Source: Pirellulales bacterium (lineage in GTDB: Bacteria; Planctomycetota; Planctomycetia; Pirellulales; Thermoguttaceae). From it: a stretch of 64,000 bases of DNA. The stretch lies in contig JAFGLH010000185.1 in NCBI GenBank assembly GCA_016928165.1, positions 5,759 to 69,758 on the forward strand, in the 5' to 3' direction. A program made the position numbers and the translations under genes. Below the pieces are notes generated by a model. It did not search any database. It saw nothing but the letters and a program-made list of their open reading frames with translations, and was not told the origin of the DNA. Shown piece by piece: positions 1-58,450 of the stretch (position 1 is its first letter; the number at the start of each line of letters is the position of its first letter).

Positions 1-499
1 AATTCGTGCGCGAAACGGTCCCCTCTCCCTTTGGGAGAGGGTTAGGATGAGGGCCATTTTCCCGCGCCCCCCTGCCCTGCCCTGCCCGATCAGACTCCGG
101 TCCCAAGGCCAAGGCCATCTCGGCCACCTCCTCCGATGTCGGCGGCCGGTCGCCGAGCATCCACTTCAAGCCGTTGATCTGCGCGGGATTGTGCGAAGCG
201 GTCACGATCGCGCAGCCCGCGGCGTCCAAACGGAGCTTGGCATAGTGGATCATCGGCGTGGGCAGCAGGCCCAGTTCGACCACGTCCAATCCCGAGTCGC
301 AAAGCCCATCGACCAGCGCGGCCATCAGCGGCGGGGTCGATTCGCGTACGTCCCCGCCGACGACGAACTTCGCCCCTGGTGCCAGTCGCCGCCCCAGCGC
401 CCGGCCCCAAGCCTCGAACATCGGGGCCGTAAGCTCCGTATCGACCTGTCCGCGAATGTCGCAAGGTTTGAAGATGCTCACCGGAAATACTTTTTCCAT
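1..499 (-). CDS. phosphomannomutase/phosphoglucomutase, N-terminal part (runs off the window start)
   Basis: Absent from the ORF track because it has no stop in the window. My translation of the minus strand from ATG at 499 gives MEKVFPVSIFKPCDIRG...GCAIVTASHNPAQINGLKW. It contains the phosphohexomutase active-site loop TASHNP (plus-strand 186-206). GTG at 481 is an alternative start. A palindromic repeat copy (18-54) is read in frame as PHPNPLPKGEGT. Confidence 0.8.
   Translation of the reverse strand, partial: MEKVFPVSIFKPCDIRGQVDTELTAPMFEAWGRALGRRLAPGAKFVVGGDVRESTPPLMAALVDGLCDSGLDVVELGLLPTPMIHYAKLRLDAAGCAIVTASHNPAQINGLKWMLGDRPPTSEEVAEMALALGPESDRAGQGRGARENGPHPNPLPKGEGTVSRTN
18..54. repeat. 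PLP-type palindromic element copy (gtcccctctccctttgggagagggttaggatgagggc)
   Basis: Core palindrome cctctccc-ttt-gggagagg plus a G-rich tail. It matches the other family copies listed below. Confidence 0.8.
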
Positions 500-1209
500 C
501 GCCGGGGACGCGCCAACACGCTAATCGCCAATGTTATGAGAATAACAACAGCGCTTGGCTCGGGCAATTGCGAATCCGGCCGCAAAATGTGATAAAGGCC
601 GTTTTGATCGCTTGAACGAGGCAGTAGTGGATCTATGTCTGGAGAAAGAAACCCGGTTTGAACCGAATCAGTCAAATTGTAGTTGTATGCGACGTTGTTT
701 CCACCCTTGATGAAAAAATCTCCCCAAACCGGCTCGCGATTGCACCAAAAAGACCAGGTCATGTTGAATTCACTACCCGCCAAAGGAACGAATTTAATCC
801 CCCAAACATCCGACGGCATATGGGGATTTCCGGCATTTGCTTTTTGCATTACTATGTCGTCTTCGATGGTCGCTCCCGCGAGTCCCGCGAGGTCGTCGAT
901 ACTCATCGCTTCGGAGCATTCGATTATCAGATGGCTAATAGCGCTCTGCAACGCACCTTCGCCTGAATAAGCTACCGTGTACGTATACTTCCAAGGATAG
1001 CCCTGCCGGGTCTTGTCGTCGTTGGTAACCGACCAGGAAAAAGTGATCGAGTAGTCATCCCACATTTGTCCGACAACCTTAATACCATTAACGGAATCCA
1101 ACTCGGAAGGCGCATAGGTCAAAGAACCGGACAACGTTTCGGCGAATAGAGACGCGCCATCACAAAACATTATCACACTTGCCGACAAAAAAACCACTAT
1201 ACGAACCAT
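478..1209 (-). CDS. secreted PEP-CTERM-anchored protein, function unknown
   Basis: N-terminal signal peptide MVRIVVFLSASVIMFCDGASLFA. C-terminus PEPSAVVILITLAISVLARPRRWKK has the PEP motif, a hydrophobic helix and a basic tail. GAGGAG Shine-Dalgarno sequence upstream. GC is clearly lower than neighbours (23 of 60 nt at 661-720). Confidence 0.75.
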   Translation of the reverse strand: MVRIVVFLSASVIMFCDGASLFAETLSGSLTYAPSELDSVNGIKVVGQMWDDYSITFSWSVTNDDKTRQGYPWKYTYTVAYSGEGALQSAISHLIIECSEAMSIDDLAGLAGATIEDDIVMQKANAGNPHMPSDVWGIKFVPLAGSEFNMTWSFWCNREPVWGDFFIKGGNNVAYNYNLTDSVQTGFLSPDIDPLLPRSSDQNGLYHILRPDSQLPEPSAVVILITLAISVLARPRRWKKYFR

Positions 1210-1461
1210 GTTGCTCCTCGCTGTTTCTCAATGATGTATCAAACGTGCGCAGAATGATTTCCTCGAACAATCAATGTTCGAGAAAACGAAGTTTAGCGGC
1301 AAAGAGATGAAACGGCTCTGTAAAACCGTGTTCTCGATGGCAAAAGCCGTTTAGGCGGGAAACACAAACGGCATTGCAGGCAGTAGCGCTACCTCGGAAA
1401 TGGCTTGAACGTTGCCTAACTTGCGTATTATGACATTCTGAGCAAATAACGTCAATGCCCT

Positions 1462-1632
1462 GTAGAACGTGTTTTGGAATTGAAAAATTAGTCTCCTCTC
1501 CCTTTGGGAGAGGGTTGGGGTAAGGGCCGATCGGCTGAAAAACATCGGAAGTTGACGACGCAATCCAAACAGTCCTCACCCCCGGCCCCTCTCCCAAAGG
1601 GCGAGGGGAGATTTTCAAAACACGTTCTAACC
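1462..1632. repeat. composite MITE-like palindrome: two inverted PLP elements bracketed by short terminal inverted repeats
   Basis: PLP copies lie at 1491-1527 and 1574-1610 in opposite orientation. The outer arms tagaacgtgttttggaattgaaaa (1463-1486) and ttttcaaaacacgttcta (1612-1629) are imperfect reverse complements. The track ORFs 1271..1618 and 1351..1563 are translations of this repeat. Confidence 0.6.
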
Positions 1633-1724
1633 GGGCAAATCTTCCACCATTGATCGGACATCCTACATCAACTAATGTATATGGATATTACCGTCTATGG
1701 AAGCATCCGGCAGGAGCAACGCGC

Positions 1725-2807
1725 ATGACAACGCCCACCACCCCCCAAATTAGTCCCGAGGAGGCGGTCCGGCGAATCGCCCAGGCACGCGAGGCGCTGG
1801 TCGGCGAGGTCCATAAGGCAATCATCGGCCAAGATGAGATGATCGAGCAGATGTTGATCTGCCTCTTCGCCCGCGGACATTGCCTGACGATCGGCGTGCC
1901 GGGCCTGGCCAAGACATTGACCGTCTCGACGCTGTCCCAGGCGTTGCACCTGAAGTTCGCGCGGATTCAATTCACTCCCGACCTGATGCCCAGCGACATC
2001 ACGGGCACGGAGATCATCGACCAGGACCCGGCGGGCGGTCAGCGGAGCTTTCGCTTCGTGCGCGGACCGGTCTTTTGCAACATCTTGCTGGCCGACGAGA
2101 TCAACCGCACTCCGCCCAAGACGCAGGCGGCGTTGTTGCAGGCGATGCAGGAGCGGGAAATCACCATCGCCGGCAACACCTATCCGCTCGCGCCGCCGTT
2201 TTTCGTGATGGCCACGCAAAACCCGATCGAACAAGAAGGCACCTACCCGTTGCCCGAGGCGCAGTTGGACCGTTTCATGCTCTCGATCAACATCGGCTAT
2301 CCGACCCGCGCCGAGGAGCGGGAGATCGTCGTGGCGACCACACAAACGGCCCGGCCCGAGGTCCGCCCCGTATTGCACGGCCAGGACGTGCTTTGGGCAC
2401 AAGAGTTAGTCCGCCAGGTGCCGGCCAGCCGTCACGTGGTCGATTACGCGGTCGATCTGGCCAGGGCCACGCGGCCCAAGGAGCCGCCAAGCCCCGATTT
2501 CGTCAAGAACTGGCTGGCCTGGGGTGCCGGGCCGCGGGCCGCGCAGTTCATGGTCCTCGGCGCGAAGGCCCGGGCGATACTCCACGGACGCTTCGCCGTC
2601 TCGGCCGACGACATTCGCGCAATGGCCTATCCGGTGTTGCGCCATCGGCTGTTCACCAACTTCAACGCCGACGCCGAAGGAATCGACGTGGACCAGGTGA
2701 TTGAGAAGATATTGCAAACCGTTGCCGAGCCGAACTATGGCGAGTCGCTGCCGACGAAGTCGTCGGATACCGTTCGCCAGCCCCTCCCTCCGCCTCCGGG
2801 AGGATGA
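1725..2807 (+). CDS. moxR: MoxR-family AAA+ ATPase
   Basis: IIGQDEMIEQMLICLFARGHCLTIGVPGLAKT (Walker A), LLADEINR (Walker B), and a typical MoxR C-terminal region. Start moved to ATG 1725 (MTTPTTPQ), internal to track ORF 1650..2807. Confidence 0.9.
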   Translation: MTTPTTPQISPEEAVRRIAQAREALVGEVHKAIIGQDEMIEQMLICLFARGHCLTIGVPGLAKTLTVSTLSQALHLKFARIQFTPDLMPSDITGTEIIDQDPAGGQRSFRFVRGPVFCNILLADEINRTPPKTQAALLQAMQEREITIAGNTYPLAPPFFVMATQNPIEQEGTYPLPEAQLDRFMLSINIGYPTRAEEREIVVATTQTARPEVRPVLHGQDVLWAQELVRQVPASRHVVDYAVDLARATRPKEPPSPDFVKNWLAWGAGPRAAQFMVLGAKARAILHGRFAVSADDIRAMAYPVLRHRLFTNFNADAEGIDVDQVIEKILQTVAEPNYGESLPTKSSDTVRQPLPPPPGG

Positions 2808-2858
2808 ATCGTTCATGGCGTTCCGTTTAGCGCCTGCAAGACCATCGTCTTGTGCGGC

Positions 2859-2929: not shown

Positions 2930-2982
2930 CTGCTTAGCTTCCCATCTTTTCAACTATACCATATTGTGCCGGAGCGACGACT

Positions 2983-5136: not shown

Positions 5137-6026
5137 AGGCGGCTCCGTGTGGCGATGTATCGTGAAAGGAGAAAGTCGTACGGCGTCGAGGTGTCGGCCG
5201 AAACGAAGTCGATCCGCGCCTCGGCGCAGGCGCGGCGGTACGTCTCGATGAACGCCTTGATTTGAGCGAGATACTCGTCGCGGGCGTAGACCGGATCGAC
5301 TTCGATGCGCCCGCCCGATTCCAGGTCGCGGAAGGCGGTCGTCTCGCTAAAGGGAAACTCGATCTCGCCCCGGTCGAGCACGTGGAAGACCACCACCTCG
5401 TGGCGGCGGTGGCGAAAGTGGTGCAGCGCCTTGACGATCTCCTCCGGCCGGCCGTAGAGATCGCTTATCAACACGATCAGGCCGCGGCGCTTCGAGCGGT
5501 CGGCAACCCTGTGCAGCGTTTCGGCGACGTCGGTTTCTCCGGCAGCTTCGATCCTTTCGAGCCGCTCCATCATCTCGTTGAAGTGGCGCGGAGTACTGCG
5601 AGCGGGCATGTCGAGCCGTATCCGAGAGTCGAATACCGTCAGGCCGACCGCGTCTTGCTGGCGAATCATCAGGTAGGCGAGCACGGCGGTCAGATAACAG
5701 CCGTATTGCAGCTTGCCGAAGTCGCCCGCGAGGCCGTAGCCCATCGAACCGCTGGCGTCCAAAAGAATCCGGACCCGCATGTTCGTCTCTTCCTCATACT
5801 GCTTGACGTAGAGGCGGTCGGTGCGTCCCAACATGCGATAATCGAGCCGCCGGGGGTCGTCTCCGGGCGCGTACTCGCGGTGCTCGGCGAACTCGGCGCT
5901 GAACCCCTTGTAGGGGCTGGAATGCAAGCCGCTGATGAATCCCTCGACGACCCCGCGTGCGACGAGCGAGAGATTTTTCACCCGCGCGAGGGCCTGCGGT
6001 TCGAGGAATCGGTAGCCGGATTGCAT
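5133..6026 (-). CDS. DUF58 family protein (vWA-like, MoxR partner)
   Basis: SSPYKGFSAEFAEHREYAPGDDPRRLDYR and LLDASGSMGY are typical of DUF58 proteins. Translationally coupled to the BatA-like gene. Confidence 0.85.
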   Translation of the reverse strand: MQSGYRFLEPQALARVKNLSLVARGVVEGFISGLHSSPYKGFSAEFAEHREYAPGDDPRRLDYRMLGRTDRLYVKQYEEETNMRVRILLDASGSMGYGLAGDFGKLQYGCYLTAVLAYLMIRQQDAVGLTVFDSRIRLDMPARSTPRHFNEMMERLERIEAAGETDVAETLHRVADRSKRRGLIVLISDLYGRPEEIVKALHHFRHRRHEVVVFHVLDRGEIEFPFSETTAFRDLESGGRIEVDPVYARDEYLAQIKAFIETYRRACAEARIDFVSADTSTPYDFLLSRYIATRSRL

Positions 6027-9212: not shown

Positions 9213-9215
9213 ACC

Positions 9216-13631: not shown

Positions 13632-14888
13632 ATGAATATAAAGAGTGTGAAGAGTATGAAGGGTGTGAAAGGCGAGAAGGGCGTGAAGGGCGCTTCCCGA
13701 CACCCCGAATCCCCGCATCCCCCAACCCCCGCCCCGCGCCGAGTGGACGCGGCGGCTAAACTTTCCTCCCCTCGCCCGCTTGCGGGAGAGGGGCCGGGGG
13801 TGAGGGCAGTTGCTACGACGAGCGCGCAAGCAGCCCTCGCCCTAGCCCTCTCCCAAAGGGAGAAGGGACGCCGAATTGTCCCCTGCTCCCAGCCCCCAAC
13901 CCCCGCGCCCCGCGCATTCACCATCATCGAACTGCTGGTGGTGATTTCGATCATCACGATCCTGATGGGCGTGGTCGTGGGCACGATGTCGTCGGACCGG
14001 GACGACCGGCGGATCCGCGAGGCGGCCCGGGCGGTGAACCTCTATCTCGGCTCGGCGCGGGTCAGGGCGATGGAGACCGGCCGGCCCTGCGGGGTGATTC
14101 TCCGCAATTTCGCCGCGCCCGGCTTCGCCATGAACGCCGACCAGTGCGAGGTTCCCCCAAACTACTGCGGAGAGTGCTATTCGTCGGTCGCCGAGGTCCG
14201 GGCGCTCAACCAGACCACGGTCCTGGCGGAGTTGACCGACGGCTCGGGCAACGCGGAGCCGATCCCGCTCGGCATAGTCAAAAGGAGCGACCTGATGCAA
14301 CTCAACCTGCAAGGGCCGTACTACACGGTAAACGCGCTCGCCGCCGACCCCGACCCGTCCACCGGCAGCACAAGCACGCTGTATCTGCGGCCCCTCGAAA
14401 ACATATTGGTCCCCTGGCCGACAACCGATTCCAAGACAGTGCCGTATCGCATAATCCGCTCGCCGATCAAGGGTTTCGCACAGCCGCTGCAACTGCCCGC
14501 CGGAACGGTCGTCGATATCGCCGGATCTGGCGTGGGCAACAGCGCTTGGGGCACGGGGATGACGAACGACGCAACCATAATGTTCTCGCCCAACGGCTCG
14601 GTCGAGTCCATATACATTGGCGGCAATAAACAAGCTATCGTCGAGCCGATCTACCTGTTGATCGGCAAACGGGAGCGGGTCGACAACGTCTACACCGACC
14701 CGAACACCAACGAGGCCGCGCTGACCAACTTGCAAGACATGGGCAATCTTTGGGTGACGATCAACCCGCACTCCGGCGCGGTCCAGACCGAGCCGGTGGC
14801 CTCGTGCGCCGGCGTGGCCGATTGGAACGATGCCATCGTCGCCGCCCGGGAGTTGGCCCGCCAGGGGCTTGGAATGGGAGGGAGATGA
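13632..14888 (+). CDS. minor pseudopilin (prepilin-type N-terminal domain)
   Basis: RA/FTIIELLVVISIITIL with Glu at +5. ATG 13632 is 1 nt after the upstream stop. The first roughly 95 codons consist entirely of repeat sequence. An alternative in-frame GTG at 13800 lies inside a PLP element, 6 nt after GGGAGAGGGG. Confidence 0.75.
   Translation: MNIKSVKSMKGVKGEKGVKGASRHPESPHPPTPAPRRVDAAAKLSSPRPLAGEGPGVRAVATTSAQAALALALSQREKGRRIVPCSQPPTPAPRAFTIIELLVVISIITILMGVVVGTMSSDRDDRRIREAARAVNLYLGSARVRAMETGRPCGVILRNFAAPGFAMNADQCEVPPNYCGECYSSVAEVRALNQTTVLAELTDGSGNAEPIPLGIVKRSDLMQLNLQGPYYTVNALAADPDPSTGSTSTLYLRPLENILVPWPTTDSKTVPYRIIRSPIKGFAQPLQLPAGTVVDIAGSGVGNSAWGTGMTNDATIMFSPNGSVESIYIGGNKQAIVEPIYLLIGKRERVDNVYTDPNTNEAALTNLQDMGNLWVTINPHSGAVQTEPVASCAGVADWNDAIVAARELARQGLGMGGR
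13641..13690. repeat. 9-nt tandem array of the GTGTGAAGG family (plus orientation)
   Basis: The sequence aagagtgtgaagagtatgaagggtgtgaaaggcgagaagggcgtgaaggg is the inverse orientation of the array at 12661-12708. Confidence 0.85.
13767..13868. repeat. two PLP elements in opposite orientation (13767-13807 and 13834-13868)
   Basis: The first copy, ctcccctcgcccgcttgcgggagaggggccgggggtgagggc, is identical to the copy at 14963-15005. The second is ccctcgccctagccctctcccaaagggagaagggac. Confidence 0.85.
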
Positions 14889-14889
14889 G

Positions 14890-15942
14890 ATGAAGGGGAT
14901 TAGGGATTGGGGGTTAGGGATTAGAAGCGCCCCGCGACCGCGGTCGCGGGCAGCCAATCACATCTCCCCTCGCCCGCTTGCGGGAGAGGGGCCGGGGGTG
15001 AGGGCGGCCAACCGCGCCCGCCGCGCCCTCTCCTTGCTCGAGGTCTTGGTCTCGATCTTCATTCTCGCCTTTGGGCTGTTGGGCGTGGCGGCTTTGATCC
15101 CGTTGGGCAAGCTATCGTTGATGGAGACGAACGTCGCCGACCGCACCGGCGCCTGCGGCCGGGCCGCCATGCGCGAGGTCGAGGTCAGACGAACGCTCTA
15201 CTACCGACGCTGGTACGGCCTGCCAATTACTCCGGATCAATTAGGCGACAGCACGCAGTTCGGCGCAGTGGCGATTGATCCGCTCGGATACTTGGGCTCC
15301 GGCAATGTGGTGTTTCTGGCCGGCAATGTTTTTCCGCGGCTTTCGCTCGATCTCACGCCGGCCGAGGCCGACGCAATTTTCCGCTGGGGCGACGAATTGG
15401 TCTACGCAATGCCGGATGAGATGGCCCCGCCGCAACCGGGCGATCGGCCGGCGCCGGTCCCCGACATGGCCAACCAACAGGACGAGGGCAATTTCTCCTG
15501 GTTCCTCACCGTCTGCCCCTCGCCGAGCGACGTCAACTTGGGCGTGCCGGTCAGGCTGCGGCGGAACTACACCGTTTCGGTCGTCGTCTGCAACAAGCGC
15601 GATTTCACCTCCGCCGCCGAGCACGCAACCGCGAACCCGGTCGCCTTCATCGGCGGCGGATACGGCGGCGGAACGATACAACTGAATTCGGCCGACGCGG
15701 ACATTCTCGACCGCATCGAAAACGATCAATGGGTAATGCTCTTCGGCAGCAGCGGCGTCACGCCCGTTGTGGCCAAGTGGTATCGCGTGGTGGGCGTGGG
15801 CGATGCCGCCACGCCGTATTTAACGCTCGTCGGGCCGGACTGGAACAATACGTTTGCCCCTCGGCTGCTCGTCGTCGAGGGCGTTACCGGAGTGTACTCG
15901 ACCACCGTCCAGTTGGACGCCGATCTGACATGGACAAGGTGA
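14890..15942 (+). CDS. minor pseudopilin (prepilin-type N-terminal domain)
   Basis: RRA/LSLLEVLVSIFILAFGLLGVAAL with Glu at +5. ATG 14890 is 1 nt after the upstream stop. An alternative GTG at 14998 would give a conventional 10-aa basic leader MRAANRARRA, with the PLP element supplying a GGGAGAGGGG Shine-Dalgarno sequence. Confidence 0.75.
   Translation: MKGIRDWGLGIRSAPRPRSRAANHISPRPLAGEGPGVRAANRARRALSLLEVLVSIFILAFGLLGVAALIPLGKLSLMETNVADRTGACGRAAMREVEVRRTLYYRRWYGLPITPDQLGDSTQFGAVAIDPLGYLGSGNVVFLAGNVFPRLSLDLTPAEADAIFRWGDELVYAMPDEMAPPQPGDRPAPVPDMANQQDEGNFSWFLTVCPSPSDVNLGVPVRLRRNYTVSVVVCNKRDFTSAAEHATANPVAFIGGGYGGGTIQLNSADADILDRIENDQWVMLFGSSGVTPVVAKWYRVVGVGDAATPYLTLVGPDWNNTFAPRLLVVEGVTGVYSTTVQLDADLTWTR
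14893..15005. repeat. G-tract array (14893-14925), GC hairpin (14927-14951) and PLP element (14963-15005)
   Basis: The units are ggggattagggattgggggttagggattag, then gcgccccgcgaccgcggtcgcgggc, then the 41-nt PLP copy. The same three unit types also fill the clearly intergenic spacers of this operon. Confidence 0.85.
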
Positions 15943-15963: not shown

Positions 15964-16056
15964 GTCCCCTCTCCCGCCGGGAGAGGGTTAGGGTGAGGGC
16001 TGATGGGCTGCGGAGTTGCCCTCACCCCCGGCCCCTCTCCCAAAGGGCGAGGGGAG
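15964..16056. repeat. two inverted PLP elements in the spacer before the giant pseudopilin gene
   Basis: Copies at 15964-16000 and 16018-16056, followed by hairpin gccgtcg-gca-cgacggc at 16067-16087. Confidence 0.85.
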
Positions 16057-35313: not shown

Positions 35314-35697
35314 TTGAAATTCCGAGCAATTCGCGAAAAGGAGATGCGTATGGGCGCGATACGCCAGTTCTACCCGATAGTCGGCGAAAATGTCATCTCA
35401 GTTCACTCGAAATGGAACCTGGCGTCTTTTTATGCTTTTGGAGAGGTAATCCACGAACTTCGAGTCAACGGTGAGCTTGAGGATTCCCATAGCAGCGGAT
35501 CGATCAAGAAGGCGGGCGCGACGTATGCAATACTTGAAATAGAGGGCAAGAAAACTACGATTCGGGTCGATGTCATGTCCCGGATCATCGGGTATAAGTA
35601 TAAGCTGGACTTTTGCAAATTTGTCCCCTCTCCCTTTGGGAGAGAGGTCGGGGGTGAGGGCATGGGAAAATCGCGCAAGCAAGCCAAGGCGTTTTAA
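35314..35697 (+). CDS. hypothetical protein; the 3 prime end runs into a PLP repeat
   Basis: Open frame in low-GC DNA. The last roughly 25 codons (FVPSPFGREVGGEGMG) are repeat-derived, so the true end is doubtful. Confidence 0.3.
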   Translation: MKFRAIREKEMRMGAIRQFYPIVGENVISVHSKWNLASFYAFGEVIHELRVNGELEDSHSSGSIKKAGATYAILEIEGKKTTIRVDVMSRIIGYKYKLDFCKFVPSPFGREVGGEGMGKSRKQAKAF

Positions 35698-35770
35698 GAC
35701 CGCAAGCCCTCACCCTAGCCCTCTCCCGGAGGGAGAGGGGACTTTCGTTTTCGAATTTGCAAAAGTTCAG
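35610..35770. repeat. composite MITE-like palindrome: two inverted PLP elements with short terminal inverted repeats
   Basis: PLP copies at 35623-35661 and 35706-35751. The outer arms cttttgcaaatt and aatttgcaaaag are reverse complements. Same architecture as 1462-1632 but with different arm sequences. Confidence 0.65.
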
Positions 35771-40530: not shown

Positions 40531-41919
40531 ATGATTAAGCAAACCCTGCCGATCGTGGCAATCATACTTGCATTCTCGGGCGCCGTTTTTGCACAAACGT
40601 CAAACCCACCGTATCTCGGACATACGGACGATCTTGCCGCTCGGTTGAACCAATTAGAGGCCGAGACGCAATCCCTTCGGGCGGAAGTCGAATGGCTCCG
40701 CGCGCATCCGGTCCGGCCCCCGAAGAACAACGCCGCGCCGGTAAGCATGTCCGCAATGATGGCCGCCGAAGACCAAGGAGACTATTTCACTCTCGAAGAG
40801 CTGCGCGGCGAAATGAAGAAGCTGGCGTGGACGAAGGGCGATTTCAAGATCGTTCCTTATGGAATACTTTGGGGGAACATGGTCTATGCGACTCAGCGGA
40901 CCTCGCCCGGCTCATATACGCTGTTCGTCGATTCGAAAACCGCGTCCAACGAGGACGAGTTCGTCGTCGATGCCCGAAACACGCGGATCGGGCTTGACGT
41001 CGGCGGTCCGCGAGTTCCCTTCCTTTTTTACGCTCCCAGCGGCGGCAAGGTGGAAATTGACTTCCAAAACAGCGTCCTATCCACGGAGAACAAACCGACA
41101 ATCCTCATGCGCCACGCCTACTTGGAGGTGAAGAACGAAGAGTTCCGGCTTTTGTTCGGGCAGACATGGGACGTGGTTTCACCGCTGATTCCCGGAACAT
41201 TGCTCTACTCCATCCTCTGGGACGCCGGCAACATCGGCTATCGCCGGGCACAGTTGCGCGGCGAGCGGTATCTGGCCCTCTCCGACGTTTCGCTGCTGTC
41301 GGTCCAACTCTCCGCCAATCAGCAGGTTTTCGAGGACGGCACGAATGAGATCGATGGCGAATTTCCCGACTGGCCGATCATCGAAGGCCGCCTCGGATGG
41401 ACCATTGGCCATCGCGGAAAGAATTGCTTGCCGATCACGTGCGGCGTTTCGGCGCACGTCGGCGAAGAACAGTTCGACCACACCGTCGTGGGGCCGAACG
41501 TCCGCCGTCAAACCTGGTCGGCAAACGCCGATCTCCGTATCCCGATCAATGATCGGCTCGGATTTCAGGGAGAGTGGTTCATGGGCGAAAATCTCGGCGC
41601 GTTCCTCGGCGGCATTGGCCAGGGCGTCAATCCGGTCACCCTGGGCGAAATCCGCAGCTACGGCGGCTGGTTCGAGGTCTGGTTCGACTGGACTGCCTAT
41701 CTGCACAGCCACGTCGGCTACAGCGTCGACGATCCGAACGACAACGACGTTGCCGCCGGGCAAAGGACTTACAACCAGTGCTATTTCGGCAACATAGCGT
41801 ACGACCTGACCGACAAGTTCCTCATCGGTCTCGAGGTCAGCTCGTGGAAAACGCTCTACGCCGAGCGGTTGCCGGGCGATTCGGTCCGCTGTGAATTCGT
41901 GGCAAAATATGGGTTCTAA
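40531..41919 (+). CDS. putative outer-membrane beta-barrel / porin-like protein
   Basis: Signal peptide MIKQTLPIVAIILAFSGAVFAQ, a short coiled coil, alternating-hydrophobicity strands, and a C-terminal ...VAKYGF ending in Phe. Confidence 0.6.
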   Translation: MIKQTLPIVAIILAFSGAVFAQTSNPPYLGHTDDLAARLNQLEAETQSLRAEVEWLRAHPVRPPKNNAAPVSMSAMMAAEDQGDYFTLEELRGEMKKLAWTKGDFKIVPYGILWGNMVYATQRTSPGSYTLFVDSKTASNEDEFVVDARNTRIGLDVGGPRVPFLFYAPSGGKVEIDFQNSVLSTENKPTILMRHAYLEVKNEEFRLLFGQTWDVVSPLIPGTLLYSILWDAGNIGYRRAQLRGERYLALSDVSLLSVQLSANQQVFEDGTNEIDGEFPDWPIIEGRLGWTIGHRGKNCLPITCGVSAHVGEEQFDHTVVGPNVRRQTWSANADLRIPINDRLGFQGEWFMGENLGAFLGGIGQGVNPVTLGEIRSYGGWFEVWFDWTAYLHSHVGYSVDDPNDNDVAAGQRTYNQCYFGNIAYDLTDKFLIGLEVSSWKTLYAERLPGDSVRCEFVAKYGF

Positions 41920-41946: not shown

Positions 41947-42027
41947 CCCTCATCCCCGACCCCTCTCCCGCTTCCGGGAGAGGGGAGTATTATTAGGGTT
42001 CTTTCTCCCGCTTGCGGGAGAGGGGAG
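41947..42027. repeat. two PLP-type elements downstream of the porin-like gene
   Basis: Copies ccctcatccccgacccctctcccgcttccgggagaggggag (41947-41987) and tctcccgcttgcgggagaggggag (42004-42027). Each is followed by tattnttag. Confidence 0.8.
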
Positions 42028-42308
42028 TATTGTTAGAGTTCCTTAGTTGGGATGTTAGGTCTTCTGCCGCCTCAACAGCGTATTCCCTTCCCTTTTCCCT
42101 TTTCAGTGTGGCATTAGCTGCAAATACCGCCTATGTGGCGGTTTGCATGGCCGGACATTATAGGCAATATGCGCAAATAAAGTAATTATTGCCGATTATT
42201 CTCTTTTTAACGAAAGTTTTAGTCCGGCAAAATCCGATGACTTTTCCGTCCACAACCTCCATCGTGGAGGCTCTGTGGGTATGCCCCCACTGTTAGGAGG
42301 ATAAGATA

Positions 42309-49520: not shown

Positions 49521-49584
49521 GGAGTGTTCCTTTTCCCGAAGAACGTAATTCATTCCGTTCTTGTGAATGGAATATCGCGTGAAG

Positions 49585-51033: not shown

Positions 51034-51058
51034 GCAATGCCGATCCCCAAAAGAAGAA

Positions 51059-51596: not shown

Positions 51597-51768
51597 ATCA
51601 AGAATTTTACAGGAACTCTATTGTCCAATCAACCTATCGTAGTATAACACCACCATGATGGTCAGGTGATTTTCACAATGATCCACCCCATCACTGAGGG
51701 GGGTAGTGATTGTTCTGGGTTTTGGAACTATCGAAGCCTCTATGGCGTCTTTGTTTATAGGTCGTTTG

Positions 51769-51790
51769 TCGGCCGTCGGCACGACGGCCA
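51769..51790. repeat. hairpin gccgtcg-gca-cgacggc in the alpha-2-macroglobulin leader region
   Basis: Same unit as at 16067-16087 and 33496-33550. Lies 66 nt upstream of the A2M ATG. Confidence 0.7.
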
Positions 51791-51855
51791 AAACAGCGAA
51801 AAATATGGGCCGTCGTTCCGACGGCCGCCAAACATGGCATAGGGAGCAAAAACCA

Positions 51856-54800
51856 ATGAAATCGCTTGTCTGCTGGTTGTCCACGGCCGTCGTTTTTGGG
51901 GCGTTTTCGGTCGCCGCCGCATCGGCCGCCGATCTAGACTCGCTGAGAAATCAAATGCAAAATAATTTCAAGCAGGGCAACTTCAAGGACGCTTACGAGG
52001 GCTTCCGCAAGTTGGCCCTCGATCCGGACGACGCCGCCCGCCTGGTCGGAAGCGATCTGTACATGGCCGTTCAGTGCCTCCAACGATTGAATCGCCTGAG
52101 CGAAGTTGACGTCCTCTTGGAAGACGCCGTTAGGGTTCACAAGGGCAACTGGCGATTGCTCCAGGCGGCGGCTTCGCAATACATGCAAATCCCACATTTC
52201 GGCTACATCGTCGCCGGCAAGTTCGAGCGCGGCCAGCACCGGGGCGGCGGTCGCGTGGTCAACTCCACCGAACGCGACCGAGTACGCGCCTTGCAGCTAA
52301 TGGTCCAAGCCATGCCCACAGCCATGACTGACGACGATCATGGGGACGTGGCCGGCTACCTCTCCACACTGGGCGAGATGCTGTTGAACAATCGCGGTTA
52401 CGGCGAGGCGTGGCGGCTGCAATATCTGACCGACCTCAACGTCCTGCCCGACTACGAGGAAGGCTGGGGATACGGGCGTCAGACCTCCGGCGCGCCGGTC
52501 GACAACGACGGCAAACCCGTTTTCTATAGTGTCCCGAAGACGTTTGAGTCTTCCGTCAACGACGGCCAGCGGTGGCGGTGGTGTCTGCAACAGACCGCCG
52601 AGATGGATCCACAGCGGATGAATTCCGTACGGATGCAGTTCGCCAATTTTCTTGAAAACCAGTTCGGCGTGCAGACAATGGTTCAGTGGGGATGGCGGTT
52701 CAGGCAAATGGAGACCGACGACACGCGAGAAGACGAAAGCGGCACGTACGCGCTGCACACCCTCGGCGAGAACGAAACCATCGCCCGGCTGGCCACAGGA
52801 ATCAAACGCTTCGAGTTGCCCGACGAGTTCAACTACATCAAAATTTATCGGCAGGTGGCCGACGACGTAGGACAGGTTGGCAACCTGTCCCACAATAACA
52901 TCGAGGCGTTGGAGCACTTGGCGCAGATTTTCGAGAACCGCCGCCAATACCCCAAGGCGGCCGACTACTGGCGGCGATTGCTGAAGGACTATCCCAATTA
53001 CGATCGCCGGCAGCGCGAGACCTGGAAACAACGGCTCGACCAGATCGTCGGCGCCTGGGGCCGCTTCGAGCCGGCCCAAACCGAGCCGGCCGGCCGTGGA
53101 GCAACGGTCGCGTATCGCTTCCGCAACGGGCGGCAGATCGCCCTAACCGCCCATGAAATTAAGGTCGAAAAACTCCTCGACGACGTCAAGACGTACATCA
53201 AATCCAGACCCGGCCGCATCGACCATAGAAAAATCAATATCGGCGATGTGGGCCACCGGCTGGTCGCGGAAAACCAAGAAAAATACCTCGGCGAGAAAGT
53301 CGCTGAGTGGAAAATGATGGTCAATCCGCAGCCCGACCATTTCGACAAGCGGGTGACGATCGCCACCCCGCTGCAAAAGCCGGGGGCTTATCTGATCGAG
53401 GCCCGCATGGCCGACGGCAACACCAGCTTCATCGTCCTCTGGGTCGACGATACGGCGATCGTCAAGAAGCAGCTTGAAAACAAGACTTATTACTTCGTCG
53501 CCGACGCCGTCTCGGGCAAACCGGTTGCGCGGGCCAACGTCGAGTTCTTCGGCTGGCGAATGATCCACCACAATCGGCCGCAGCGGTTCGAGATCCTCAC
53601 CAAGCAGTTCGCCGAATACACCGACGCCGACGGACAGGTGATTCTCGGCAAAGACGATCAGCCGAACGAGTATCAGTGGCTGGCCACGGCCCGCACCAAG
53701 GACGGACGTTTCGCTTATCTCGGCTTCGACCACGTCTGGTTCGGCCGCCGCCACGACGCCGAATACAACGAGGTAAAGGCCTACGCGATCACCGATCGGC
53801 CGGTCTATCGCCCCGATCAGAAGGTGCATTACAAGTTCTGGGTCCGCCACGCCAAGTACGACATGAGCGATACGTCGGAGTTCGCCGGCCGCGAGTTCGT
53901 CGTAGAGATACACAATCCCAAGGGAGATAAGGTCGCCGATCAGACGCTGAAGGCCGACGCCTACGGCGGCATCGAGGGCGAATACCCCCTTCCCACGGAT
54001 GCGACCTTGGGTGTTTATAGTATAGTCGTGAAAGACTCTTCGCGAAATTTAGGAGGCGGCCATTTCCGCGTCGAGGAATACAAAAAGCCGGAATACGAGG
54101 TGACCGTCGAGGCCCCGGAACGCCCGGTCATGCTCGGCGATAAAATCACCGTCACGATCAAAGCGAAATACTACTTCGGCTCGCCGGTCGTCCACGCCAA
54201 GGTGAAATACACCGTCAAACGCGACAGCTACGACGGACGCTGGTATCCCGGCGGCCCCTGGGACTGGCTCTACGGGCCGGGTTACTGGTGGTTCGGCTAC
54301 GACTACGACTGGTTCCCGGGCTGGAAGTCGTGGGGCTGCCAGCGGCCGACGCCGTTCTGGTGGCCGCGCGGCCATCAGCCGCCCGAGTTGGTCGTCGACC
54401 GCGAGGTCGAGATCGGCGAGGACGGCACCGTGAAAGTCGAGATCGACACGTCAGTCGCCCAAGCCATCCACCCCGACCAGGACCACAGCTACACGATCAC
54501 CGCCGAGGTGGTCGACCAGTCGCGGCGGACGATCGTCGGCACGGGCCGCGTGTTGGTCGCCCGCAAGCCGTTTAAGGTTTTCGCTTGGGTCGATCGCGGT
54601 TACTTCCGCGTGGGCGATACGATAGGCGCCCATTTCCGCGCCCGCACGCTCGACGGCAAACCGGTCGAGGGCCGTGGCGAGTTGAAATTGCTTAAAATCA
54701 CCTACCGCGACGGCAAGCCGATCGAGACGCCTGTCCAGACCTGGGAGCTAGACACGAACGCCGAGGGCGCAGCCCATCAGCAGATGACCGCCTCGGAGTC

Positions 54801-57800
54801 GGGGCAGTATAGGATTTCGTACAAGCTGACATCCTCCCCTCTCCCGCAAGCGGGAGAGGGGCCGGGGGTGAGGGCGGATGGCACTTCTAATCAAACCACA
54901 AACAGCCCTCACCTTAACCCTCTCCCAAAGGGAGAGGGAACCATGCACACCGTCGAAGGCGGCTACCTCTTCACCGTCATCGGCGAAGGCTTCGACGGCG
55001 CCCAGTACCGCTTCAACCACCTGGAACTGATCCCCGACAAAAAGGAATACGCCCCCGGAGATACGATCAAGCTCCAGATCAACACCGCTCGCGCCGGCGG
55101 GACGGTGCTGCTGTTCGCCCGGCCCACCAACGGCGTCTATTTGCCGCCACAAATAATCCGGCTGGACGGCAAGAGTACGATCGAGGAGATCGGCGTGGTT
55201 CAAAAGGACATGCCCAACTTCTTCGTCGAGGCGGTCACGGTGGCCGACGGCCGGGTATACACCGAGTCGAAGGAGATCGTCGTCCCGCCCGAGAAGCGGA
55301 TTCTTAACGTCGGAATTGAACCGTCAAAGGAGGCATATAAGCCGGGCGAAAAGGCCAAGGCGAAGATCAAGCTCACCGACATGACCGGCGAGCCGTTCGT
55401 CGGATCGACCGTCGTGGCGATCTACGACAAGTCGGTCGAGTACATCTCGGGCGGGTCGAACGTGCCGGACATCAAGGAGTTTTTCTGGAAGTGGCGCCGC
55501 CACCACCACCCGCAAACCCAATCGAGCCTTGGCCGCTGGTTCGGCAACATGCAACGGCCGAAAACCGTCGGCATGAGCGATCTTGGCGTCTTCGGCGGAA
55601 CCGTGGCCGACGAAGTCACCGGTCAATGGGATTCCGATGCGATGAACTCGCCCATGCCGGGCATGGCGCAAGCAGGATTCGGCGGACGCGGCGAAGGCAA
55701 GCGAATGGCGAAGTCAATGGTTGCCGGCGCGCCGTTGGAAACCGCCGCCGCTCCAATGATGGTCATGGAAGAGGCAGACAAAGGTTTAGCCGCCGACGGA
55801 GCAGCCGAAGCGCCGATGGTCGAGCCGACCGTGCGGACAAAATTCGCCGACACCGCGCTATGGGTCGGCGCTCTGACCACCGCCAAGGACGGCACGGCCG
55901 AGGTCTCGCTCGAAATGCCCGAGAACCTGACCACCTGGAGGATCAAAGTTTGGGGGATGGGTCAAGGCACCCGCGTCGGCCAAGGCTTCACCGACGTCGT
56001 GACCCGCAAAGACTTGATTATCCGCATGGAGGCCCCACGCTTCTTCGTCCAAACCGACGAGGTTGTGCTGTCGGCGATTGTGCATAACTACTTGAAGAGT
56101 GTGAAGGGTGTGAAGGGTGTGAAGAGTATGAAGGTTGAACTTGATTTAGACAGCGATTTGTTTCAACCAATAGATGTCGATTCATCGGCTACAATTACTG
56201 TTAATGCAAATGGAAATTCTCTCCACGAAAAAGTCGTGAAAACCTTGGACGCCCTACACGATTCGTTTCCCGGCAGAACATTCCGACTGCAAGAGTGGAA
56301 TGGAAAGGATATTGGCTATACGATTTCTCAAACAGTCGAGGTCAAGGCCGAAGGCGAGGCCCGCGTGGATTGGCGCGTAAAGGTGCTCGACGAAGGCGAA
56401 GCGGTCATCCGCATGAAGGCCCTGACCAACGAGGAATCGGACGCGATGGAACAGCGCTTCCCCTGCTACATCCACGGGATGCTGAAGATGGAGGCGGTCA
56501 GCGGCTCGATCCCATCCTCCCCTCGCCCGCAAGCGGGAGAGGGGCCGGGAGTGAGAGTGGGTAGCTTCATGATCGACGTTCCCGCCGAGCGCCGCCCGAA
56601 GGACTCGCGGCTCGAAGTCCGCTTCTCGCCGACGCTGGCCGGGGCGATGGTCGACGCCCTCCCCTATCTGGTCGATTATCCCTACGGCTGCACCGAGCAG
56701 ACGCTGAACCGCTTCCTGCCGACGGTCGTCACGCAAAAAATCCTCTTGGATATGAAACTCGACCTGAAAGAGATCGAGCGGAAGCGAACGAATCTCAACG
56801 CCCAGGAAATCGGCGACGATGCGGAGCGGGCGAAGCAGTGGGGACGGGGACTGTCCCGATTTTCGCACAGCGAAAATGGGACTGTCCCCTTTGCCCGAAA
56901 CCCCGTCTTCAATGAGGACGAGGTCCGCAAAATGGTCAAGGAGGGCGTCGAGGCGCTGACCGAGATGCAGTGCTCCGACGGCGGCTGGGGCTGGTTCTCC
57001 GGCTGGGGCGAACACTCCTCGCCGCACACCACCGCGCTGGTCGTCCACGGCCTGCAAATCGCCCGGGCGAACGACGTCGCCCTGGTCCCCGGCATGTTGG
57101 AAGGGGGCGTCCAGTGGCTGCGCCGCTATCAGGACGAGCAGATTGAACTATTGAAAAACGCCTCGATAAAAGACAAACCGAAGGATTTGCGTTGGAAAAA
57201 ATACGCCGACAACATTGACGCCTTCGTCTACATGGTGTTGGTCGACGCCGGGGTGAAGAATCCCGAGATGCTCGATTTCCTCTACCGCGACCGTACCCAC
57301 TTGGCCGTTTACGCCATGGCAATGTACGGACTCGCATTAGAAAAGCAAGGCGCTCGCGTTTTCCCCTCTCCCTCAGGGAGAGGGGCAGGGGGTGAGGGCG
57401 GTTTGAATGAAAAACTGACTATGATTATGCGAAACATCTCGCAATATCTCGAGCAGGACGACGAGAACCAGACGGCCTGGCTCCGTCTACCCGGCGGATA
57501 TTGGTGGTGCTGGTACGGCAGCGAGTACGAGTCCCAGGGCTATTACCTTAAGTTGCTCGCCCGAACCGATCCGAAGGGCGAGGTGGCCCCGCGGCTTGTA
57601 AAATACCTGCTCAACAACCGCAAACACGCCACCTACTGGAACTCTACCCGCGACACGGCCATCTGCGTCGAGGCGATGGCCGATTTCATCCGGGCAAGCG
57701 GCGAGGACCGGCCCGAGATGACCGTCGAGATTTTCTACGACGGCAAGCTGCAAAAGGCCGTCGAGATCACGCCCCAAAACCTCTTCCAGTTCGACAACAA

Positions 57801-58407
57801 GTACGTCCTCGAAGGGGACGCCATTACTTCCGGCAAACACACCGTCGAACTGAAGGTCAACGGGCGCGGCCCGCTCTACTACAACGGATACCTGACCACC
57901 TTCACGCTCGAAGATTTCATCCGCCGGGCCGGGCTGGAGATCAAGGTCAACCGCAAGTATTACAAGCTGGTCAAGGTCGATAAGTCGATCCACGCGGCCG
58001 GCTCGCGCGGGCAGGCCGTCGATCAAAAGGTCGAAAAATACGAGCGGCAAGAACTCGAAAACCTCGCCGAACTGAAAAGCGGCGATCTGGTCGAGATCGA
58101 GTTGGAAATCGACAGCAAGAACGACTACGAGTACCTGGTCTTCGAGGACATGAAGCCGTCGGGCTTCGAGCCGGTCGAGCTGCGCAGCGGCTACAACGGC
58201 AACGACCTGAGCGCATACGTCGAGTACCGCGACAACCGCGTGGTCTTTTTCGCCCGCGCGGTCGCCCGGGGCAAGCACAGCGTTTCGTATCGGATGCGGA
58301 CCGAGATACCGGGCAAGTTCAGCGCCTTGCCGACCCGCGGCTGGGCGATGTACGCGCCCGAGTTGAAGGCCAATTCGGACGAGATCAAGCTGCGAGTGGA
58401 GGATTAA
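51856..58407 (+). CDS. giant bacterial alpha-2-macroglobulin family protein with thioester motif
   Basis: Signal peptide MKSLVCWLSTAVVFGAFSVAAASA after an AGGGAG Shine-Dalgarno sequence. Repeated MG-type beta-sandwich regions. Thioester motif YGCTEQ (about 56686-56700). A C-terminal receptor-binding-like domain. Start moved to ATG 51856. Confidence 0.9.
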   Translation: MKSLVCWLSTAVVFGAFSVAAASAADLDSLRNQMQNNFKQGNFKDAYEGFRKLALDPDDAARLVGSDLYMAVQCLQRLNRLSEVDVLLEDAVRVHKGNWRLLQAAASQYMQIPHFGYIVAGKFERGQHRGGGRVVNSTERDRVRALQLMVQAMPTAMTDDDHGDVAGYLSTLGEMLLNNRGYGEAWRLQYLTDLNVLPDYEEGWGYGRQTSGAPVDNDGKPVFYSVPKTFESSVNDGQRWRWCLQQTAEMDPQRMNSVRMQFANFLENQFGVQTMVQWGWRFRQMETDDTREDESGTYALHTLGENETIARLATGIKRFELPDEFNYIKIYRQVADDVGQVGNLSHNNIEALEHLAQIFENRRQYPKAADYWRRLLKDYPNYDRRQRETWKQRLDQIVGAWGRFEPAQTEPAGRGATVAYRFRNGRQIALTAHEIKVEKLLDDVKTYIKSRPGRIDHRKINIGDVGHRLVAENQEKYLGEKVAEWKMMVNPQPDHFDKRVTIATPLQKPGAYLIEARMADGNTSFIVLWVDDTAIVKKQLENKTYYFVADAVSGKPVARANVEFFGWRMIHHNRPQRFEILTKQFAEYTDADGQVILGKDDQPNEYQWLATARTKDGRFAYLGFDHVWFGRRHDAEYNEVKAYAITDRPVYRPDQKVHYKFWVRHAKYDMSDTSEFAGREFVVEIHNPKGDKVADQTLKADAYGGIEGEYPLPTDATLGVYSIVVKDSSRNLGGGHFRVEEYKKPEYEVTVEAPERPVMLGDKITVTIKAKYYFGSPVVHAKVKYTVKRDSYDGRWYPGGPWDWLYGPGYWWFGYDYDWFPGWKSWGCQRPTPFWWPRGHQPPELVVDREVEIGEDGTVKVEIDTSVAQAIHPDQDHSYTITAEVVDQSRRTIVGTGRVLVARKPFKVFAWVDRGYFRVGDTIGAHFRARTLDGKPVEGRGELKLLKITYRDGKPIETPVQTWELDTNAEGAAHQQMTASESGQYRISYKLTSSPLPQAGEGPGVRADGTSNQTTNSPHLNPLPKGEGTMHTVEGGYLFTVIGEGFDGAQYRFNHLELIPDKKEYAPGDTIKLQINTARAGGTVLLFARPTNGVYLPPQIIRLDGKSTIEEIGVVQKDMPNFFVEAVTVADGRVYTESKEIVVPPEKRILNVGIEPSKEAYKPGEKAKAKIKLTDMTGEPFVGSTVVAIYDKSVEYISGGSNVPDIKEFFWKWRRHHHPQTQSSLGRWFGNMQRPKTVGMSDLGVFGGTVADEVTGQWDSDAMNSPMPGMAQAGFGGRGEGKRMAKSMVAGAPLETAAAPMMVMEEADKGLAADGAAEAPMVEPTVRTKFADTALWVGALTTAKDGTAEVSLEMPENLTTWRIKVWGMGQGTRVGQGFTDVVTRKDLIIRMEAPRFFVQTDEVVLSAIVHNYLKSVKGVKGVKSMKVELDLDSDLFQPIDVDSSATITVNANGNSLHEKVVKTLDALHDSFPGRTFRLQEWNGKDIGYTISQTVEVKAEGEARVDWRVKVLDEGEAVIRMKALTNEESDAMEQRFPCYIHGMLKMEAVSGSIPSSPRPQAGEGPGVRVGSFMIDVPAERRPKDSRLEVRFSPTLAGAMVDALPYLVDYPYGCTEQTLNRFLPTVVTQKILLDMKLDLKEIERKRTNLNAQEIGDDAERAKQWGRGLSRFSHSENGTVPFARNPVFNEDEVRKMVKEGVEALTEMQCSDGGWGWFSGWGEHSSPHTTALVVHGLQIARANDVALVPGMLEGGVQWLRRYQDEQIELLKNASIKDKPKDLRWKKYADNIDAFVYMVLVDAGVKNPEMLDFLYRDRTHLAVYAMAMYGLALEKQGARVFPSPSGRGAGGEGGLNEKLTMIMRNISQYLEQDDENQTAWLRLPGGYWWCWYGSEYESQGYYLKLLARTDPKGEVAPRLVKYLLNNRKHATYWNSTRDTAICVEAMADFIRASGEDRPEMTVEIFYDGKLQKAVEITPQNLFQFDNKYVLEGDAITSGKHTVELKVNGRGPLYYNGYLTTFTLEDFIRRAGLEIKVNRKYYKLVKVDKSIHAAGSRGQAVDQKVEKYERQELENLAELKSGDLVEIELEIDSKNDYEYLVFEDMKPSGFEPVELRSGYNGNDLSAYVEYRDNRVVFFARAVARGKHSVSYRMRTEIPGKFSALPTRGWAMYAPELKANSDEIKLRVED
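54834..54942. repeat. two inverted PLP elements inside the A2M CDS, read in frame
   Basis: Copies at 54834-54875 and 54905-54942, translated as SSPLPQAGEGPGVRADGTSNQTTNSPHLNPLPKGEGT. Confidence 0.85.
56095..56135. repeat. 9-nt tandem array (GTGTGAAGG family) inside the A2M CDS
   Basis: The sequence gaagagtgtgaagggtgtgaagggtgtgaagagtatgaagg is translated as KSVKGVKGVKSMK. A segment of about 37 percent GC follows directly. Confidence 0.9.
56516..56558. repeat. PLP element inside the A2M CDS
   Basis: The sequence tcctcccctcgcccgcaagcgggagaggggccgggagtgagag is translated as SSPRPQAGEGPGVRV. Confidence 0.85.
57361..57399. repeat. PLP element inside the A2M CDS (second open frame)
   Basis: The sequence ttcccctctccctcagggagaggggcagggggtgagggc is translated as FPSPSGRGAGGEG. 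Confidence 0.85.
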
Positions 58408-58410
58408 AAC

Positions 58411-58450
58411 AGCCCTCCCCTTGCCCGCTTGCGGGGGAGGGGCCGGGGGC
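58411..58450. repeat. PLP element between the convergent A2M and recJ genes
   Basis: The sequence agccctccccttgcccgcttgcgggggaggggccgggggc begins just after the A2M stop. Confidence 0.8.

Follow-up and report, generated by a model that had tools for sequence, protein, structure and literature searches.

The stretch of DNA analyzed here (the window; 64,000 nucleotides, positions 5,759 to 69,758 of contig JAFGLH010000185.1, assembly GCA_016928165.1) comes from a metagenome-assembled genome (MAG) of the Thermoguttaceae, Planctomycetota (3.62 Mb, 88.5% complete; G000 in the following), and contains numerous copies of a short palindromic repeat that we refer to as the TM unit. With high probability, the TM units belong to the BoxC/PIT/TMECO family of bacterial repeats and are inserted in frame in genes. 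The repeat family as such is known, and what is new here is the lineage, the density and the in-frame copies. The units behave as selfish repeats of the type of repetitive extragenic palindromes (REPs) or MITEs (miniature transposable elements with inverted repeats) that were strongly amplified in this Thermoguttaceae lineage, and a comparison of congeneric genomes shows gains, losses and duplications of units at fixed sites. The initial annotation of the window had likened them to the Rickettsia palindromic elements (RPEs), and its central point stands, as the palindromic family resides in frame in real genes, namely an alpha-2-macroglobulin-like (A2M) gene, a phosphohexomutase gene and 30-odd further genes.

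A TM unit comprises roughly 40 nt (37-43 nt, with 39 and 42 nt as the most frequent model-aligned lengths) in the order CCCCTCTCCC - loop - GGGAGAGGGG - linker - GGGGTGAGGGC, i.e. a 10-bp G+C hairpin and, behind it, a G-rich tail in which the 3' arm recurs. Alignment of the 17 positions of the initial annotation gives [GCT]TCCCCTCTCCC, a loop of 3 or 6-8 nt, GGGAGAGGG(G), the linker, and GGG(G)TGAGGGC, with the linker TTA defining type A and the linker G[CT]CGG (GCCGG) defining type B. The core CCCTCTCCC-N3-6-GGGAGAGGG has 7 exact matches in the window with 0 expected (none in 100 shuffles), and with up to 3 mismatches and a 3-nt loop there are 10 matches with 0.05 expected. An nhmmer profile built from the listed copies, which was used for the window as well as for the genome search, recovered 16 of the 17 positions. 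Fifteen of these are strong (E <= 7e-7: 18, 1491, 1574, 13766, 13834, 14963, 15964, 16019, 35623, 35707, 41947, 54834, 54906, 56517 and 57361), the copy at 58415 is weak and degenerate (E 4.6e-4), and the copy at 42004, which the profile missed, is a hairpin without G-rich tail, so the list has to be read as 15 solid copies, one degenerate copy and one hairpin only. No family was matched in an Rfam scan of the window at gathering thresholds. In computed RNA folds, the hairpin of a single unit reaches about -25.4 kcal/mol, and inverted doublets reach about -64 kcal/mol (z -5.4 to -6.1). Besides the published triplex, the 3' arm together with the tail (GGG AGA GGGG CC GGGGG TGA GGG, e.g. window 54851-54874) also fits the canonical G-quadruplex pattern of four tracts. 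The claim that only one reading frame of the consensus contains a stop holds for type B (39 or 42 nt, a stop in 1/6 frames, 5/6 open) and does not hold for type A, in which 3/6 frames contain stops and 3/6 are open. The encoded peptides are rich in Pro, Gly and Ser (SPLPQAGEGPGVRA, LPSPASGRGAGGEG, PHPNPLPKGEGT).

The family has been defined by Holder et al. 2015 (PMC4666352) as CCCTCNCCC N3-6 GGGNGAGGG N3 GGGNGAGGG, an "intrastrand triplex motif" for which formation of a class II purine-motif triplex by the single strand in vitro serves as a criterion, and the same study described types A (TTA) and B (CCG) as well as inverted A+B doublets. As 42 sites of G000 match this strict pattern exactly, and 142 further sites match it when the second loop has 5 nt, the family has to be regarded as already known. 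The exact pattern CCCTCNCCC-N3-8-GGGNGAGGG-N3-5-GGGNGAGGG occurs 188 times in G000, and the reversed control pattern 0 times. The units share with BoxC/TMECO the C-rich arm, a 3-6-nt loop, GGGAGAGGG, a linker and GGGTGAGGG, the two types and their inverted A+B doublets, and furthermore the patchy distribution among related genomes, the local instability and the lack of a nearby transposase. In comparison with the E. coli type A copies of Table 1 of that study, the three stem blocks and the TTA linker of our type A match, whereas differences lie in the first loop and, for most of the E. coli copies, in one or two positions of the stem. Further differences are the 5-nt second loop of type B (GCCGG instead of CCG), the 6-nt first loop of many units, the host phylum, and the bracketing of DUF559 genes that is described below. 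The published survey reported TMECO in Proteobacteria, with 3610 copies in 262 genomes and a maximum of 143 in a single genome, and G/C-rich triplex motifs in Cyanobacteria (PMC4666352). E. coli K-12 has 23 copies that are "always located intergenically" (PMC4666352), whereas G000 has 436 copies by profile or 188 by exact pattern, and 41 of 273 loci lie in frame in genes. The initial annotation knew of no description of such a family in this lineage, and this is correct in so far as neither the lineage nor intragenic copies appear in PMC4666352, whereas the family itself has been described.

In the whole MAG, nhmmer detected 436 non-overlapping copies at E <= 0.01, corresponding to 120 per Mb. 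The true number must be higher, because many contigs end in a TM unit. Examples of contig ends within or beside a unit or composite are C4:45-82, C5:23-55, C39:47-84 and C254:1-110. Since contigs so often begin or end at TM units, the repeat fragments short-read assemblies, and MAG copy numbers are underestimated. The copies form 344 loci, which comprise 262 solo units, inverted doublets, and short tandem arrays, in which as many as four units are separated by spacers of about 12-17 nt. Pairs of neighboring units are convergent (+/-) in 66 cases and of the opposite arrangement (-/+) in 3, with a modal spacer of 46 nt, and there are 58 convergent doublets, mostly A+B, of about 105-125 nt. Two composites of the window, famA and famB, have sharp ends and outer inverted repeats, and their blastn depth is about 40-90 hits per composite (famA about 40-90 hits at 85-93% identity, famB about 40-63 hits at 84-97% identity). 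In a sample of Planctomycetota, the pattern is present in 54 of 301 genomes, and the count of G000 is the highest of that sample; exact counts range from 55 to 274 within the genus and from 0 to 91 within the family. In another planctomycete genome with 158 exact copies, TM units occur every ~170-280 nt over ~5 kb (G175:C1:798921-804038), which is either a tandem array or a repetitive gene with one unit per repeat.

How many of these copies lie in genes? Genes were called with our own iterated hexamer coding model trained on G000, which replaced a codon-usage model that poorly separated coding from non-coding sequence, and a locus counted as in frame when one frame was open across the unit and a coding signal was present on both sides. 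By this test, 41 of 273 classifiable loci, about one in seven, are in frame. In 19 more loci the flanks are coding on the same strand and out of frame; in 16 of them an upstream stop codon lies 7-69 nt before the element, and in the remaining 3 the unit provides the final residues and the stop codon. No frame-breaking insertion was seen among the 273 loci, and no same-strand out-of-frame locus looks like a broken gene. Embedding in genes is therefore real, yet the majority of the copies, roughly 85%, are intergenic, and about 12-17% of the loci lie inside intact genes with the frame open across them. Pfam domains flank the inserts on both sides in MutS, CarB, IleS, LigA, PheT, AroB, IspG, PurL, AceE, RecQ and others. 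The hosts function in repair and replication (MutS, LigA, RecQ, an AddA-type helicase-nuclease), in translation (IleS, PheT, a class II tRNA synthetase, PrmC), and in metabolism or envelope synthesis (CarB, AceE, AroB, IspG, PurL, AsnB, two Mur ligases, NuoJ, KdtA, DegT, PGM/PMM). They are ordinary, intact and mostly essential genes, and the pseudogenes that would have spoken against the proposed insertion in functional genes were not encountered. Among in-frame units, 5 are of type A and 42 of type B, as compared with 71 and 178 elsewhere (Fisher p 0.01), and such an excess of type B is what a stop filter predicts, because type B is open in more frames. The in-frame units match the profile as well as the others (median 33.2 versus 31.9 bits) and are therefore young or maintained rather than decayed.

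The features of the window to which the following comparisons refer are:

1..499, minus strand: 5' part of the phosphohexomutase (PGM/PMM) gene, which runs past the left window edge; whole open reading frame (ORF) at G000:C257:4734-6278
18..53, plus strand: TM type A unit in the phosphohexomutase gene, antisense to the gene and in frame as PHPNPLPKGEGT (nhmmer E 1.4e-8); the second unit of this gene lies just outside the left window edge
1462..1632, no strand: famA MITE-like composite of ~169 bp with outer inverted repeats, intergenic in a divergent spacer; consists of TM type A at 1491-1526 (+), a 47-nt spacer, and TM type B at 1574-1610 (-); doublet fold -64.8 kcal/mol, z -5.4
13766..13869: inverted TM doublet in a pseudopilin leader, units at 13766-13806 (+) and 13834-13869 (-); host ORF 13632-14888
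14963..15004, plus strand: TM type B unit within the open leader of a second pseudopilin gene (14890-15942; ATG at 14890, mature part from ~15022)
15964..16056: inverted A+B doublet, units at 15964-15999 (+) and 16019-16056 (-), intergenic, starting 22 nt past the pseudopilin stop codon
35610..35770, no strand: famB MITE-like composite of ~175 bp, units at 35623-35660 (+) and 35707-35742 (-) with a 46-nt spacer, intergenic
41947..42040, minus strand: TM unit at 41947-41987 and hairpin-only partial copy at ~42004-42040, starting 28 nt past the stop of gene 40531-41919
51706..58407, plus strand: A2M gene, 2233-aa ORF with uncertain true start, three insert loci with four TM units
54834..54940: first A2M locus, in-frame inverted doublet with units at 54834-54874 (+) and 54906-54940 (-), encoding SSPLPQAGEGPGVRADGTSNQTTNSPHLNPLPKGEGT; fold -64.3 kcal/mol, z -6.1
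56517..56556, plus strand: second A2M locus, in-frame TM type B unit encoding SSPRPQAGEGPGVRV, ~45 residues upstream of the thioester motif
57361..57398, plus strand: third A2M locus, in-frame TM type B unit encoding FPSPSGRGAGGEG
58415..58454, plus strand: degenerate TM unit starting 8 nt past the A2M stop codon

The A2M gene illustrates best that the units are lineage-specific insertions, which are absent, single or tandem among congeners. Its ORF contains the Pfam domains MG2, MG3, A2M_BRD, A2M, TED and bMG10 as well as the thioester motif CTEQ, and orthologues were found in 16 of 20 relatives searched. G003 has an intact and G004 a degenerate doublet at the first locus, and the doublet is missing from G001, G002 and each of the more distant relatives whose orthologue was aligned. 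At the second locus, the unit is present only in G000, G002 and G011 and absent in 13 other orthologues. At the third locus, G000 and G003 have one unit and G005 has two in tandem, whereas G001, G002, G004 and every more distant relative whose orthologue was aligned have none; at the DNA level, the unit of G003 is an exact 42-nt addition relative to the empty sites. The ORF is open across all four units that the initial annotation had noted, orthologues lack the inserts at exactly these points, and the peptides quoted for A2M and the phosphohexomutase are exactly as given there. Among named Thermoguttaceae-like A2M loci, 19 of 80 carry units, at no fewer than four different sites (at least 4). 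The empty alleles at 56517-56556 and 57361-57398 (G001, G003, G004) resemble the tail of a unit (GGGCGAG..., GGCCGAAGG...), and the empty sites GGCCGAAGGA... and GGGCGAGAAGG likewise are similar to the G-rich tail GGGNGAGGG, which hints at microhomology or at a preference for G-rich targets. A similar pattern of presence and absence is found in MutS, where a doublet lies just upstream of Walker A: within the genus it occurs only in G000 and G005, and it is absent in three congeners and in 14 other aligned relatives of the family or order.

Could these segments nevertheless be ancient protein features, could the hosts be pseudogenes, or could the units be products of mis-assembly at repeats? 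The MAG is incomplete and its contigs often end in TM units, which shows that the repeat disturbs assembly. Nevertheless, we regard this as very improbable: there are orthologues without the Gly/Pro-rich segments, the hosts include essential single-copy genes whose ORFs are intact and whose domains flank the insert on either side, the same gene runs on in frame across each unit, in-frame units are as well preserved as intergenic ones, and the same inserts recur in the independently assembled G002, G003, G005 and G011. All three readings were rejected on the basis of the orthologue alignments and the intact domains.

Alignments and structures agree in placing the inserts in loops or linkers. 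The phosphohexomutase has the Pfam domains PGM_PMM_I to IV on both sides of the insert and the active-site loop TASHNP, and its two units are located in a hypervariable linker between domains I and II that lacks them in most of 52 homologues; a few close relatives have TM-derived peptides of their own in this linker. In the AlphaFold model (mean predicted local distance difference test score, pLDDT, 91.3; predicted template modelling score, pTM, 0.89), residues 134-176 of the linker, which include the units, are predicted as coil with block-mean pLDDT values of 46-58, as compared with >95 in the adjoining domains. In many of the Thermoguttaceae homologues, this linker begins with a short common motif, GQGRGEG, and this motif may be an old, decayed TM unit, which would make the linker a repeatedly hit site. 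In AroB, the tandem insert falls exactly between residues 268 and 269 of PDB 6lk2. The DegT insert forms an alignment gap at the junction of two aligned blocks, and the LigA insert likewise falls in an alignment gap, with a 6-residue remnant kept in a loop of the adenylation domain. Both the comparison with insert-lacking orthologues (MutS, A2M, phosphohexomutase) and the mapping on structures (AroB, phosphohexomutase), which the initial annotation had suggested, thus gave the picture expected for insertions.

The pseudopilin leaders, which had also been listed as in-frame cases, are less uniform. Both leader ORFs are open through the TM units. In gene 13632-14888 there is no in-frame ATG, GTG or TTG between the second unit and the A|FTIIELL site, and the G002 orthologue has an equally long, open and repeat-filled leader from a conserved ATG, so translation through the units is likely for this gene, judging from the sequences. 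The neighboring gene 14890-15942 has similarly long, open, repeat-filled leaders in G002 and G004. Its unit at 14963-15004 contains a Shine-Dalgarno-like GGGAGAGGGG followed by an in-frame GTG, which would give a possible 10-residue leader, and translation could start either at ATG 14890 or at this GTG that the unit itself provides. In distant relatives, pseudopilin leaders have roughly 10-30 residues. The leaders of the genus also contain simple repeats in inverted arrangement, with (GGGATT)n or (GGGGTTC)n first and the complementary repeats behind (window 14890-14962; G002, G004). These simple-repeat leaders start with a conserved ATG directly behind the upstream stop codon, and from there on the frame remains open.

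The placement of the intergenic copies is not random either, and this raises the possibility that copies are kept because they are useful, be it as 3' hairpins that stabilize or end transcripts, as intragenic pause sites or flexible linkers, or as a supply of ribosome-binding sites and start codons. The clustering of the units behind genes agrees with such roles, as 68 loci start within 30 nt past a stop codon, and so does the depletion of divergent, promoter-containing spacers (109 tandem, 45 convergent and 10 divergent spacers with TM loci, as compared with a genome background of 1314, 337 and 322). In addition, the G-rich strand is the sense strand in a ratio of about 2:1, inside genes (43:18) as well as downstream of them (107:52), a bias that stop codons leave unexplained; the single hairpin is stable, and the unit ahead of the second pseudopilin gene contains the mentioned GGGAGAGGGG and GTG. 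The same placement would, however, be expected from selection against harmful insertions alone. Presence and absence vary among congeners at every site examined, so that no copy is conserved as a functional part, the host proteins of relatives work without the inserts, and PIT elements of E. coli had no promoter or terminator activity (PMC4666352). A maintenance by usefulness is therefore considered improbable. More probably, selection acted as a filter, by which copies that broke a frame or disturbed a structured core were removed, and the intragenic survivors would then not be there by design. Type-B units, with their lengths of 39 or 42 nt and five open frames, would be tolerated as disordered surface loops or cleaved leaders.

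Which known repeats behave in a comparable way? RPEs are palindromic elements of ~100-150 bp that, according to the accounts of Ogata et al. 2000, 2002 in PMC10969869 and PMC3733652, occur in frame in many unrelated functional genes. In both systems, in-frame copies are found in unrelated and often essential genes at fold-compatible sites, and intergenic copies exist as well. RPEs, however, are found in an obligate intracellular alphaproteobacterium, whereas the units described here have only 37-43 nt (doublets 105-125 nt) and reside in free-living Planctomycetota. As unit size, composition and host lineage differ, the likeness is one of behavior only. The parallel drawn by the initial annotation is thus apt with respect to behavior, but intragenic repeats of REP type are known beyond Rickettsia: GTAG- or CGTC-tagged REPs have been reported in repair, replication and tRNA-synthetase genes of several species, including Opitutus terrae from the Planctomycetes-Verrucomicrobia-Chlamydiae (PVC) group (Di Nocera et al. 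2013, PMC3733652). With REPs, BIMEs and REPINs, the TM units share a similar size, inverted doublets that form long hairpins, the location in tandem or convergent spacers downstream of genes, and occasional in-frame copies in the same classes of genes. No GTAG or CGTC tag was seen in the unit alignment or flank profile; the 5' flanks are A/T-rich and continue with [GCT]TCCCC. G000 has two RAYT-like Y1_Tnp genes (PF01797; G000:C242:15790-16272 and G000:C155:496-954), which are 1.8 kb and 7 kb distant from the closest TM units. RAYT was rejected as mobilizer of the TM units, as both genes are flanked by a different repeat. That repeat translates as ...PGRCPGLGEP... and is probably a separate REP family with its own transposase. 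MITEs, finally, can also fuse in frame with host genes, as described for Coxiella QMITEs (PMC5896051) and intragenic ERIC elements (review PMC10969869). Like MITEs, the TM units are non-autonomous, have terminal inverted repeats and sharp ends in famA and famB, and occasionally fuse in frame with host ORFs, whereas no parent insertion sequence with a classical transposase is present here, and the candidate autonomous form contains a Vsr-like nuclease.

This candidate is a small cassette around a DUF559 gene. G000 has two DUF559 genes, at C53:17338-17700 and C261:803-1170, and both have TM units and hairpin arrays on either side at a distance of no more than 200 nt; the probability that a random interval is bracketed is 0.00048. 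Eight genomes (G000 and seven Pirellulales relatives) contain 11 DUF559 loci in total, 9 of which have TM units within 200 nt on each side. They are typically arranged as a TM unit (+), 20-60 nt, the DUF559 gene, 35-80 nt, and a TM unit (-), which makes a cassette of ~490 bp, and the gene product is a Vsr-like protein of 120-130 aa that belongs to the PD-(D/E)xK family. Among 300 Planctomycetota genomes, 28 have TM units and DUF559, 25 only TM units, 20 only DUF559, and 227 neither, which gives a co-occurrence odds ratio of 12.7 that is uncorrected for relatedness. In other Planctomycetota, the whole cassette is found in frame inside one HsdM-HsdS gene and two HsdR genes. The DUF559 protein matches PDB 3HRL (E 9e-20) and weakly 3R3P (E 0.008), a "Mobile intron protein". 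The latter represents the catalytic domain of a homing endonuclease from a phage group I intron, and like it, the DUF559 protein is a small nuclease tied to selfish DNA; unlike in the case of 3R3P, there is no intron or intein context here, and the gene is bracketed by TM repeats and readable in frame with the host protein. A literature search yielded no paper that links DUF559 to BoxC/TM repeats. Beside one DUF559 gene on contig C53 there are partial units, namely 3-4 copies of the 3' arm with a 23-nt spacer upstream (C53:17171-17285) and three hairpin-only units without G-rich tail downstream (C53:17717-17808), and these arrays may be intermediates of unit formation or decay.

On this basis, it is conceivable, although it falls short of being probable, that DUF559 mobilizes the TM units. 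They would be spread in trans by a minimal cassette of a TM unit, the DUF559 nuclease gene and an inverted TM unit, and the solo units and doublets would be non-autonomous derivatives of this cassette. More generally, we tentatively propose that BoxC/PIT/TMECO repeats might represent the ends of a minimal selfish element, i.e. its terminal repeats, together with its MITE-like remnants, and that this element crosses phyla, has a gene for a Vsr-like nuclease of ~125 aa (DUF559) as its only gene, inserts in a frame-sparing way, colonizes essential genes, and is currently active in this genus. Several observations weigh against such an element. No target-site duplication was seen at the filled and empty A2M sites, and no consistent target motif was recognized, as half-composites predominate in the flank profiles of "solo" units, from which nothing but an A/T-rich 5' flank emerges. 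The doublet spacers have no similarity to the interiors of the DUF559 cassettes (blastn-short, self hit only), and a derivation of the spacers from these interiors was therefore dropped. DUF559 was undetected in many TM-rich genomes, including G005 with 274 exact copies, although these are MAGs of 84-97% completeness in which repeats assemble poorly. For PIT elements of E. coli, neither mobility nor a neighboring transposase was found (PMC4666352).

What else could then multiply the units? Host processes alone, i.e. slippage at hairpins or triplexes, ectopic recombination and gene conversion, would suffice if DUF559 were an independent selfish gene or a passenger that landed between TM units, as could be the case because there are TM-rich genomes without detectable DUF559. 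Such processes would agree with the variable number of tandem copies at one site (one versus two at A2M 57361, and arrays of up to four units), with the lack of target-site duplications, with the microhomology hinted at by the tail-like empty A2M alleles, and with the instability of the E. coli loci without mobility genes nearby. Slippage and conversion, however, leave unexplained how units first arrived at hundreds of unrelated, sharp-ended sites such as that of the exact 42-nt insertion, and host processes do not account for the non-random bracketing of DUF559 genes by inverted units in eight genomes. An origin by host processes alone thus appears rather unlikely.

BoxC/PIT/TMECO repeats are among the oldest unexplained bacterial repeats, known for three decades and published as intergenic DNA-structure motifs without a known way of spreading. 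To this, G000 adds more than 120 copies per Mb in a free-living planctomycete, essential genes that are entered without being broken, and a fast turnover among congeners. For annotation, this means that small ORFs may be spurious and proteins appear too long where TM units are present, that MAG assemblies break at the units, and that start-codon calls can be misled by them, for which the pseudopilin leaders are an example. In-frame palindromes of the RPE kind would then be a general outcome of a stop-free repeat with a length of 3n under selection, and not a peculiarity of intracellular bacteria. The physical tie to a small nuclease gene makes it directly testable what moves BoxC, and G000 contributes to this with its large number of copies, with sites that are cleanly filled or empty when congeners are compared, and with the two DUF559 cassettes that it contains. 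If the DUF559 element indeed exists as proposed, the genus would be a natural system for finding its cut site and its mechanism.

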